DNA from: Stylophora pistillata
Taxonomy: Eukaryota
DNA length: 56,765 nucleotides
Direction of reading: 5' to 3'
NCBI RefSeq assembly: GCF_002571385.2
Contig: NW_019217934.1
Coordinates: 525,124-581,888 of the forward strand
Below the pieces are notes generated by a model that was not told the origin of the DNA, did no database searches, and was given only the letters and a program-made list of their open reading frames with translations. Of the stretch, positions 8,172-12,133 are shown piece after piece. Every line of letters starts with the position of its first letter. Within the stretch, counting starts at the first letter, position 1. Both the position numbers and the translations under genes were made by a program.

Positions 8172-9326
8172 ACTGAATATTTATTTATATCAATGTGCAA
8201 ATTAACTGCAGTGATAGACAGCGTGTGAGATGTGGGTTTTTTTCAGGGTTTTTTTTGTATAGATTTGCTCCAAAAAAATTTGAAAGAATATTTATGCGAC
8301 ATGTGGATTGAGGCATATGAAATAAATAATTTATCTAACTTGTTCCACACTGTTCATTTAATATGCGCAGTTGGGTGGGAATGAGCACGAAAGGTTCCCT
8401 TGTGTATGAGGGGTCATCTCCGCCAATATCCTGTTTCAAATTCTGTTATGAAGAACCTGTATGCTATTGCTTTTTATCAAATTCTTTTCTCAATAAAAAT
8501 ACAACCGAAATTGGACCAACAGAATAGAATTTAGGAAGTTAGAACAGAAACTGAGTGAACAAAACGGTATTTAGAACATCCCAGCAAAGCGAAACAGAAC
8601 GGAAATTGACGATGTCTCAATTTCTGTTCTATTTTCCCGACGAACCGAGTGGAACCTGAGTAAGAGCCAGTTGAACATTATAAGTTTTTCTCCCGATTCT
8701 CGCTTAAAGAAAATTTATTCTTGCCTGGTGACCAGTCTGTTTATTAAGAGCTACTGACCGTAAATATCGAGAATCCGTCGACAGTTGCAAAATTTCGTAA
8801 TTCGTTTTATTTTCTGTAAGGGACCCTTTTAGTGAACCTTTTTCGAAAACTATATAAAAAAAGTTCTATGGCGCTTTTTTTTCTCCGAAAAATCGAAAAG
8901 TTCGAATACGCCTAAACGACCGTTGTCCTCCCCGTAAAGCAATGAAAAATGATACAACTTTGGCAACTTTGTACGCTACAACGCGATGCGATCCCGCTTT
9001 TAAATTCTGTGTGTACTAGCAGATGGTCCTTTTATTTCGTAGAAAATAGTAATTTCTTGCTATTTTGTTACGTTCAAGTCTGAATAGTGACCTGTTGAAA
9101 TAAAGTATTTCACGTCTCTTTCGCAGAGGTAAAATAAAGGTCAACCTCAGTGGCCGATGAACAGGTCTGCCATATATACTTACAAATCATAATGTACATC
9201 ATCGTAAAGCTTTATCCTTGGAATTTAATTCCTCCAATTCTCTGTCTTGGCCTGCTATAAGCTGCACTTCAGGTTTACAAGAGTTTGGGCTATTTTGTCA
9301 AAAATGCAATGCGAACCGCTGAACAG

Positions 9327-9802
9327 CTGTCACGACCCATTTAAAGGCCTTTAAAAAGGTCTTGTATGATATATTTACAAATCTAAATATGTATCTTCTT
9401 TAAGCTTTATCCTTGTAGTTTAAGTCCTCTAAGTTTCTTTCTTGACCCGCCATAGGCGGCGCGTCCAGCTTGGAGAGAGTTCGAGCTAAAATGATAAAAA
9501 ATGTAGTGCGATCCGTTGAACGGCTGTCACGCAAGAGGCTATGTATTTGGTACATTCCTGGCCAAGTTGAAAGCCGAAAGATTGGCTTTGACCTCTTGCG
9601 TGACAGTCGTTCAACGGATCTCATTACATTTGTTGTCATTTTTTAGCCCAAACTCTTTTGAAGCTGGACGCGCCGCCTATGCCGGGCCAAGAAAGAAACT
9701 TAAAGGACTTAAACTAGAAGGATAAAGCTTTAAGATGATATATATTTTGGTCTGTAAATATATACAAGACCCGTTTAATGGCCTTTAAATGGGTCGTGAC
9801 AG
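9327..9802. repeat. inner ~210-bp-arm inverted repeat inside the foldback element
   Basis: CTGTCACGACCCATTTAAAGGCC...GCTGTCACGCAAGAGG (9327-9538) pairs with CCTCTTGCGTGACAG...GGCCTTTAAATGGGTCGTGACAG (9592-9802). Confidence 0.9.
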
Positions 9803-9809
9803 AACAGGG

Positions 9810-9950
9810 GCCGGGGGGGTACTCCCTTATAAGGGCTTAATGGGGACGTGCGGCCAGCCAGGGTACGTTTTTCGAGATTTTTGTCTCAAGCAGGGTATCG
9901 AATTTATCATTTTTTGTCTTAATCAGGAATATATCGAGTATCCCCCGGGC
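9810..9950. mobile_element. short MITE (CCGGGGGGGTACTC...GAGTATCCCCCGGG) nested in the foldback spacer
   Basis: ~14-bp terminal inverted repeats, ~140 bp long, non-coding. Confidence 0.6.
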
Positions 9951-11115
9951 ACAGGGGGCCCACACAGGCGGCGTGTCCGGTCGTTTGTTCGAAATATAAA
10001 GAAATGTATGGGAGAATATTGAAGAGTCGTAATATCGTAAACTTATATCAAGGAATTTTTATGTGAAGGCTCAAAATAAATGTAAACCTACCTCACTTGC
10101 CGTGTATTGTCGTTTCTGTGATTCTAAATGGCGAATTTGAGCGATTTGGTAGATTTTGCGTGGACTGGTCCCCTGTAGTGACAGCTGTTCAGCGGTTCGC
10201 ATTGCATTTTTGACAAAATGGCTCAAACTCTTGTAAACCTGGACGCGCCGCTTATGGTGGGCCAAGATAGAGAATCGGAGGAATTAAAATGCAAGGATAA
10301 ATATTTATGATGATGTACATTATGATTTGGAAGTATATATGGCAGACCTGTTTATAGGCCTCTGAAGTTGACCTTTATTTTACCTCTGCGAAAGAGACGC
10401 GAAGTACTTTATTTCAACGGGTCACTATTCAGACTTAAACGTAACAAAATAACAAGAAATTAATATTTTCCAAGAGGTTAACGGATCATCTGCTAGCATA
10501 CAAAATTTAAAAGTGGGATTGCATCGCGTTGTAGCGTACGAAGTTGCCAAAGTTGCATAATTTTTCATTGCTTTACGGTGGGGGGTGGGGAGGGGGACAA
10601 CGGTCGTTTAGGCGTATTTCGAACTTCTCGATTTTTCGGAGAAAAAAAAGGGCGATAGAACTTTTTGATATAATTTTCGACAAAGGCTCATTAAAAGGGT
10701 CCCTTGGAAAAAATAAAACGAATTACGAAATTTTGCAACTGTCGGCGGATTCTCGATATTTATGGTCAGTAGCTAAAAAAGAGACTAGTCACCAGAAAAG
10801 AATAAATTTTCTTTGAGCGAGAATCGGGAGAATAAATTATAATGTTCAACTGGCTCTCGTCGGAAAAATAGAATAGAAACTGAGACATCGTCAATTTCCG
10901 TTCTGTTTCGCCAATTTTTGTTTCGCTTTGTTGGGGTGTTCTAAATTCCGTTTTGTTTACTCAATTTCTGTTCTAACTTCCTAAATTCTATTCTGGTACA
11001 ATGTATATATGAAGTTCATATATTTTGAACTGCGGTATTAGATACGTGTGATGCATGATCCTCGCAGTAGAGAGCGCTATTTATGCAATAGCGAAAATCA
11101 GACCTGAAAAAAATC

Positions 11116-11188
11116 AGGCCTGTACGGGATTCGAACCACTGACCTCTGCGATACTAGTGCAGCGCTCTACCAATTGAGCTATGAAGCC
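11116..11188 (-). pseudogene. tRNA-Thr(AGT)-like sequence, inverted twin
   Basis: Reverse complement of 11316-11388 but starts GGCTTCA, which mismatches the acceptor stem. Confidence 0.6.
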
Positions 11189-11315
11189 AACTGGGAGCAG
11201 GCCGTTAAGTTGATTCGTAATAAACCCGTGATGATAAATCAGATACAATGTATATATGAAGTTGATTTATAATCACGGGTTTATTACGAATCAACTTAAC
11301 GGCCTGCTCCCAGTT

Positions 11316-11388
11316 GGCTTGTTAGCTCAATTGGTAGAGCGCTGCACTAGTATCGCAGAGGTCAGTGGTTCGAGTCCCGTACAGGCCT
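11316..11388 (+). pseudogene. tRNA-Thr(AGT)-like sequence within the repeat
   Basis: GGCTTGT/ACAGGCC acceptor stem, A box TAGCTCAATTGGTAGAGC, anticodon loop CTAGTAT, B box GGTTCGAGTCC. T-stem has 2 mismatches. Confidence 0.65.
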
Positions 11389-12133
11389 GATTTTTTTCAG
11401 GTCTGATTTTCGCTATTGCATAAATAGCGCTCTCTACTAAATTCTATTCTGTTGGTCCAATTTCGGTTGTATTTTTATGAGAAAAGAATTTGATAAAAAG
11501 CAATAGCATACAGGTTCTTCATAACAGAATTTGAAACAGGATATTGGCGGAGATGACCCCTCATACTTGTGGGCCTCGACCCTGTGCACCCAACCCAGTC
11601 AGTTCTCTTGACTCACGCCCAAACCGTATCGAACGTGTTCAGGAAACCACAAAACATAAACATGGGAAGACAAAAGAACAAAGGGTGAGGATAACAAAGT
11701 GAGATTGTTATTTAGAACCGGAAACCTCTTTCGGTTGTCTCCGGTGACACATTAAAATCAATCCAGCTTGGAGAGATAGGAATAAACAGAGAAGGAATGG
11801 TTCAGAACAGTGAAAGGGAAAACAGCTTGATTACAAAGTGAACCAGAACGCCTCCAGTAGCTTTTATAGTTATTAGTTATTTGTCCGAAAAGTGAGATTA
11901 CTCAGATTCTCTTTGTTTTTTGTTTTTTTTTTTACTTCCAGACTCTTGTGCCATTTCTCTTCTCTCTCAAGTTTTTTCCAGTAAACCGCTTTCGAATTAC
12001 AGCCTAGAAAAAAATTATTTTTAGAAAAGCAAACAACGTCCTTCTTGAGAAAAGTGTGCCACACGCACAGTCGCCCAAATGTCAGCAAGAGCTAGTCTTG
12101 GAAAGCGTGAAGAAAAACGTTTTGTAATGCTTG

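Follow-up and report, generated by a model that had tools for sequence, protein, structure and literature searches.

A foldback element with kilobase arms beside TALPID3 in Stylophora pistillata, probably a non-autonomous transposon of the IS3EU/GingerRoot type

Location and boundaries of the element

The DNA analysed here (the window) is a 56,765-bp stretch of the Stylophora pistillata genome (assembly GCF_002571385.2, contig NW_019217934.1, 525,124–581,888, forward strand), and all coordinates below are those of the window. It includes the end of the TALPID3 gene, with its stop codon at 8169–8171, and a long foldback element that begins 233 bp later. The element occupies 8405–11565 (3,161 bp including nested insertions) between two copies of CTTGTG (left, 8399–8404; right, 11566–11571; both +). 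Its termini are TATGAGGGG..CCCCTCATA, i.e., TA..TA. An earlier sequence-only reading had proposed an element with a 6-bp CTTGTG target-site duplication (TSD) at 8399–11571, and these boundaries agree with it.

At this fixed parse, the probability of a 6-bp direct repeat in this window was 5.2 × 10−4. Among 16 symmetric parses compared, the longest duplication was obtained with TA..TA ends and the 6-bp TSD. Paired ends together with a duplication were present in four parses, in which TA ends go with a 6-bp repeat, GT ends with a 4-bp repeat, TG ends with TA and GA ends with AT. Thus, of the alternative parses raised previously, those with a 4-bp TTGT and a TA duplication formally exist, whereas the GAG parse yields only a 2-bp AT repeat. 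Sola transposons have a 4-bp TSD and GAG/GRG ends, and this last result does not fit them. The reconstructed empty site (8396–8404 joined to 11572–11573) was symmetric, CCC-TTGT-GGG, weakly hinting, from one site, at a preference for palindromic targets.

The element has no coding capacity, as had been claimed. Its longest stop-free stretch is 93 amino acids, and a Pfam scan of 12 read-through frames gave nothing above the cut-off and two weaker matches (E 0.07–0.1).

Palindromic structure and nested insertions

After removal of two nested insertions (838 bp), the element proper is a near-perfect palindrome of 2,323 bp. The left arm (8405–9538, +; 1,134 bp) starts with TATGAGGGGTCATCTCCGCCA and is followed by a 53-bp central spacer (9539–9591) and the right arm (9592–11565, −), which measures 1,136 bp without the two insertions and one TSD copy of each. 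The inner hairpin at 9327–9802 is part of the same arms, separated by a nested insertion. The arms are therefore longer than the ~0.93 kb first estimated. The description of the element as almost wholly self-complementary holds for the palindrome, but the two insertions, each with a TSD, make up 838 of the 3,161 bp.

The divergence between the two arms varies along their length. Among 1,104 aligned arm–arm positions, the outer 145 contained no substitution, whereas the inner 959 contained 93 mismatches (9.7%). The outer terminal inverted repeat (TIR) tract (8405–8550, +) matches the right end with one 1-bp indel, and in the right arm it continues past nested insertion B (below). Such a substitution-free run is not expected by chance (P = 3.8 × 10−7), and one as long appeared in 1 of 20,000 permutations. 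The contrast between near-identical outer and diverged inner parts had been recognised before, with the tract put at ~130 bp instead of 145 aligned bp. CpG decay does not account for the arm divergence (10 of 93 mismatches; CpG observed/expected 1.2).

Each arm holds two units of ~190 bp, in the left arm arranged in tandem at 9152–9533 (+; unit a, 9152–9335; unit b, 9346–9532). The unit types are 23%–25% divergent from each other (25% in the left arm), but between arms the divergence is 9.9% (a/a′) and 12.4% (b/b′). Because the units differ more between types than between arms, the tandem duplication appears older than the palindrome.

Seven copies of a 15-bp subterminal motif, approximately AGAACAGAAATTGAG, lie at 8435–8630 and are mirrored in the right arm. 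The copies are confined to the outer 230 bp, with none in the inner arm. Four copies besides the seed were found at ≤ 3 mismatches against 0.013 expected, for a motif picked post hoc. These repeats are putative transposase-binding sites. The possibility that another element is nested at the 146-bp boundary was rejected, as the motif spans this boundary and the similarity to a related end (P0052, below) runs through it.

Both nested insertions lie in the right arm, each with its own duplication and each missing from the left arm. Insertion A (9803–10177, 375 bp) has a 7-bp TSD, GTGACAG (9796–9802 and 10178–10184), and the ends AACAGGGG..CCCCTGTA, which read (A/T)ACAGGGG. Within its left end lies a remnant resembling a miniature inverted-repeat transposable element (MITE), CCGGGGGGG..CCCCCGG (9811–9948), with a 7–9-bp duplication in which ACAGGGG is exact and 8 of 9 bp match over the longer version. 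Insertion B (10996–11436, 441 bp) is flanked by a 15-bp TSD, CTAAATTCTATTCTG (10981–10995 and 11437–11451). It is a head-to-head tRNA-derived palindrome with 174-bp arms differing by four mismatches. ARAGORN detected a tRNA-Thr(AGT)-like sequence at 11316–11388 (+) and its mirror at 11116–11188 (−), and a 5′ extension of 70 bp repeats 27 bp of the loop. The perfect 15-bp TSD suggests target-primed retroposition. Literature searches for such a tRNA-derived palindrome gave nothing relevant. Insertion B is a separate retroposon-like lead; it might also be miscalled as a tRNA gene in annotations. Matches to Rfam microRNA families reflected generic hairpin similarity with scores below gathering. 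Insertions A and B may have entered before or after the insertion of the element itself at this locus.

Related ends in other sequence contexts

A chance frame of 42 codons at the left end (8406–8531) was used as a phmmer query against 1.84 billion proteins. Six spurious open reading frames (ORFs), P0051–P0056, cross the same end with 76%–92% identity. Their outer flanks form three unrelated groups (P0051/P0052, P0053 and P0054–P0056), none of which resembles this locus. The similarity to P0052 and P0053 starts exactly at the element terminus, and that to P0052 extends to 8599, without insertion B. TA was found at the end in every readable junction. P0054–P0056 read TACG, corresponding to the TAY variation of IS3EU, and are longer by about six codons beyond the first ~80 bp. 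In P0054 and P0055, an A (in an Asn codon) lies just outside the end, in contrast to a fixed GTATG terminus.

Because at least three unrelated flanks precede this end, these comparisons show, at the level of sequence, that the element belongs to an interspersed family with a defined end and is not a local duplication. The picture of this family is not entirely clean, since P0051 lacks the terminal bases and P0051–P0056 may stem from other corals. A blastn search of the window revealed neither a second copy nor a related empty site. In bacterial and archaeal genomes, the terminal 20-mer had one match (L001), which showed no similarity past ~21 bases and was attributed to chance.

Class assignment

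The element probably belongs to the IS3EU/GingerRoot type of DNA transposons, as a non-autonomous member whose body is a foldback. In published descriptions, IS3EU families that are complete invariably end in TA..TA and mostly have a 6-bp TSD, and GingerRoot, also with a 6-bp TSD, falls in the same lineage with 99% bootstrap support (PMC10045372). GingerRoot is further described as having a 6-bp TSD, TIRs of 100–150 bp and TA..TA in 72 of 77 cases, and coral elements are said to "seem to have similar termini" (PMC6839031). GingerRoot has been reported in Acropora digitifera. The element shares the TA..TA (TAY) termini and a 6-bp TSD (CTTGTG twice, known from one copy), and its 145-bp perfect TIR tract falls within the GingerRoot range. 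It differs in that its arms continue imperfectly to 1.13 kb around a 53-bp spacer without a transposase. Published TIRs are shorter than these arms, at 36 bp in Styx (PMC10853768), > 30 bp in rust fungi and 100–150 bp in GingerRoot. The earlier description of a non-autonomous transposon from an undescribed family thus stands with respect to the non-autonomous DNA transposon and its 6-bp TSD, but the ends fit a described group. Likewise, the class had been left unassigned on the grounds that known superfamilies fit imperfectly, whereas TA..TA ends with a 6-bp TSD constitute the published IS3EU/GingerRoot signature.

The ends were also compared by eye with a fungal IS3EU set (27 rows of the PMC12730594 supplement, first 400 bases each). 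All 27 rows start with TAY, as does the element, and 22 of them have G-(A/C)-C-A at positions 18–21, where the element has G-C-C-A. A pattern derived from the fungal ends matched only the two element ends in the window, against 0.17 expected. The motif at positions 18–21 lends modest support to IS3EU.

Several observations weigh against this placement. The position 18–21 motif was defined post hoc (14 of 14 rows where it was first noticed, 8 of 13 later rows), and it is not superfamily-wide, as it occurs in 22 of the 23 rows from Puccinia and in 0 of the 4 from Melampsora/Tuber. Against three fungal IS3EU starts, the first 11 bases agree at only 5–7 positions, which in this fungal comparison falls short of the Repbase rule allowing no more than one mismatch to a known family over positions 1–11 (PMC4455052). 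Pucciniales IS3EU ends are TAYGG..CCRTA, whereas the element has TATGA and lies outside this subset. These analyses turned up neither a transposase nor an autonomous partner, and neither an empty site nor another copy flanked on both sides, so that a single copy defines the TSD length. An ORF across the spacer, used as a protein-search query, gave one candidate and no significant match. Kilobase-long TIRs are not reported for IS3EU/GingerRoot in the literature examined. Finally, P0054–P0056 have a stretch of ~15 codons in common beyond the TAC end (blastp E 0.002 and 0.009). This common outer flank may mean that the sites are orthologous, that a repeat was the insertion target or that the subfamily has a longer end.

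Searches of published text with the terminal 9-mers gave no paper related by title among the matches listed. A Hydractinia IS3EU-like repeat is described with a 182-bp unit, but the terminal 9-mer of the present element had no match in the supplements of that paper, so the similar unit length was not counted as evidence. Coral CMITEs were rejected as relatives, being TTAA/piggyBac elements of ~100 bp.

Alternative classes

Among the alternatives, a non-autonomous member of the Tc1/mariner group resembling Hsmar2, with a TA duplication, TGAGGGG..CCCCTCA ends and a coincidental flanking CTTGTG, survives best. The element end matches TA plus the start of the Hsmar2 inverted terminal repeat (ITR) at 12 of 14 positions (PMC3770610), which counts against an IS3EU/GingerRoot origin, and the TACG variant deduced from P0054–P0056 matches at 13 of 14. 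The constant TA at the readable junctions also agrees with a mariner. However, the similarity ends at base 14, with none of the next seven bases matching by eye, and so does not run along the ~30-bp ITR of Hsmar2, which duplicates TA (PMC3770610); the element has a flanking 6-bp repeat beyond TA. A 6-bp repeat around TA would have to be fortuitous. The window has 3,801 TA sites, of which 16 show such a repeat; 13 of these are microsatellites, leaving 3 of 3,801. The probability of a chance CTTGTG is put at about 0.05%–0.4%. Subterminal repeats over 230 bp and kilobase arms are also atypical of mariners. A mariner origin is accordingly unlikely.

A non-autonomous hAT6 element, or another hAT with a 6-bp TSD, would account for the length of the duplication, since hAT6 families create 6-bp TSDs. 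hAT transposons have YA termini, subterminal repeats and usually short TIRs; the first two features are hAT-like here, but the long TIR is atypical. The comparison was made on TSD length, and we regard this origin as improbable.

At least as improbable is membership in an undescribed superfamily, for example, one with a 4-bp TTGT duplication and GTATG..CATAC ends. That parse is formally valid and lengthens the TIR by one base, the end fails the 11-base rule against the fungal IS3EU starts, and the common outer flank of P0054–P0056 could point the same way. Nevertheless, the C and G outside the TTGT copies would have to be accidental, the outer base in P0054 and P0055 is A instead of G, and a described superfamily fits the 6-bp parse. 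Ginger1 and Ginger2, with TGTNR termini and 4–5-bp TSDs (PMC2836005), were ruled out by the lack of a symmetric TGT parse.

The remaining two explanations are both very improbable. A non-autonomous Polinton/Maverick derivative would share the 6-bp TSD and long TIRs, but these elements have AG..CT termini, not TA..TA, and no coding remnant is present. A never-mobile local inverted duplication, which the sequence-only reading had kept as its counter-case, would agree with the single copy in the window and the merely fortuitous bacterial/archaeal 20-mer, but is largely refuted by the three unrelated flanks in the protein set, together with the exact 6-bp duplication and the transposon-like subterminal repeats.

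Foldback structure and proposed history

Within the IS3EU/GingerRoot assignment, the body of the element recalls the Tetris and Galileo foldbacks (PMC4079207), which are likewise non-autonomous, with kilobase-long modular TIRs, internal tandem units of ~200 bp and a short non-coding middle. The present element has only two tandem units per arm, unlike those foldbacks. Foldbacks are mostly assigned to Mutator, with exceptions (PMC4079207), whereas the ends and TSD here point to IS3EU/GingerRoot.

Mobilisation would depend on an integrase-related DDE transposase, provided in trans by an autonomous IS3EU/GingerRoot copy at another genomic site. This enzyme would bind the subterminal repeats in the outer ~230 bp and join the TA at each 3′ end to the target, at positions staggered by 6 bp between its two strands. 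Filling of the gaps would then produce CTTGTG twice. From the divergences, a four-step history may be proposed. A ~190-bp unit would first have been duplicated in tandem (units now 24%–25% apart). One end would then have been copied in inverse with loss of the coding middle (arms now ~10% apart), which is the route proposed for foldbacks generally (PMC4079207). The outer ~146 bp would have stayed or become identical, through recent conversion or descent from a master copy with homogenised ends, and insertions A and B would have been gained in the right arm.

The identical outer tract may correspond to the functional TIR, in which case this would be a young master copy, or it may have been homogenised by conversion. 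The two ends of the element are mutually identical, yet 8%–24% different at the amino-acid level from the six other ends. Moreover, both arms carry the same change, encoding Ala where five of the six other ends have Thr and none has Ala. A change common to both arms and missing from the six other ends favours concerted change, without dating it. A broader proposal, that IS3EU/GingerRoot in corals includes a foldback lineage with kilobase arms whose outer ~146 bp is actively homogenised while the inner arms drift, is tentative and, in our judgement, unlikely. If general, such a pattern would imply an end-copying step in transposition or repair, in a superfamily whose mechanism has been little studied (PMC11934779).

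TALPID3 and the potential for double-stranded RNA

The position of the TALPID3 stop, put ~230 bp before the element by the sequence-only reading, was confirmed. The upstream exons contain Pfam domain PF15324, the last exon matches Montipora and Acropora proteins, and all five longer homologs end in SSISGGDF, as does the frame in the window. An AATAAA at 8321–8326 (+), 84 nt upstream of and outside the element, is the likely poly(A) signal of TALPID3. A second AATAAA lies at 8492, and a transcript ending there would include only part of one arm.

The minimum free energy fold of 8172–11571 contained 1,040 arm–arm pairs and 194 pairs within insertion B (−2,196 kcal/mol). The suggestion that read-through would form double-stranded RNA is thus physically feasible in the predicted fold but is weakened by the AATAAA at 8321. 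Because this signal precedes the element, mature TALPID3 mRNA is not expected to contain the duplex, whereas its formation in nascent read-through transcripts is possible.

Other features of the window

Four more short palindromic MITE-like stretches were observed (36721–36890, 34850–34937, 35147–35217 and 12134–12177), along with two interspersed repeat families. One of these (3133–3260 and 28857–28983) looks like a tRNA-related sequence or short interspersed element, and its first copy follows a 21-bp tandem array (2981–3080); the other is located at 12395–12501, 15243–15337 and 20494–20581. A 69-bp tandem array at 787–1208 (6.1 copies, 99% identity) spans a TALPID3 exon–intron end, and each unit bears a GT donor-like site. 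The window also contains an XK-related gene (38598–40983, −), for which a Montipora capricornis protein (45%) was the only informatively named match to the exon among 45, and astacin-domain exons (54314–55341, +).

Significance

The element appears to be an atypical representative of a known transposon kind, not of a new one; what is unusual is the combination of kilobase arms and identical outer TIRs. The family may already be named in Repbase or Dfam coral libraries. No host function is shown by these observations. The analysis assigns a coral repeat that had seemed an orphan to a superfamily already described but little studied, in a foldback form that is new to the literature examined. In Drosophila, foldback elements are known to seed inversions and satellites. 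If the homogenisation of ends holds across copies, it would provide a sequence-level test of how IS3EU elements transpose.

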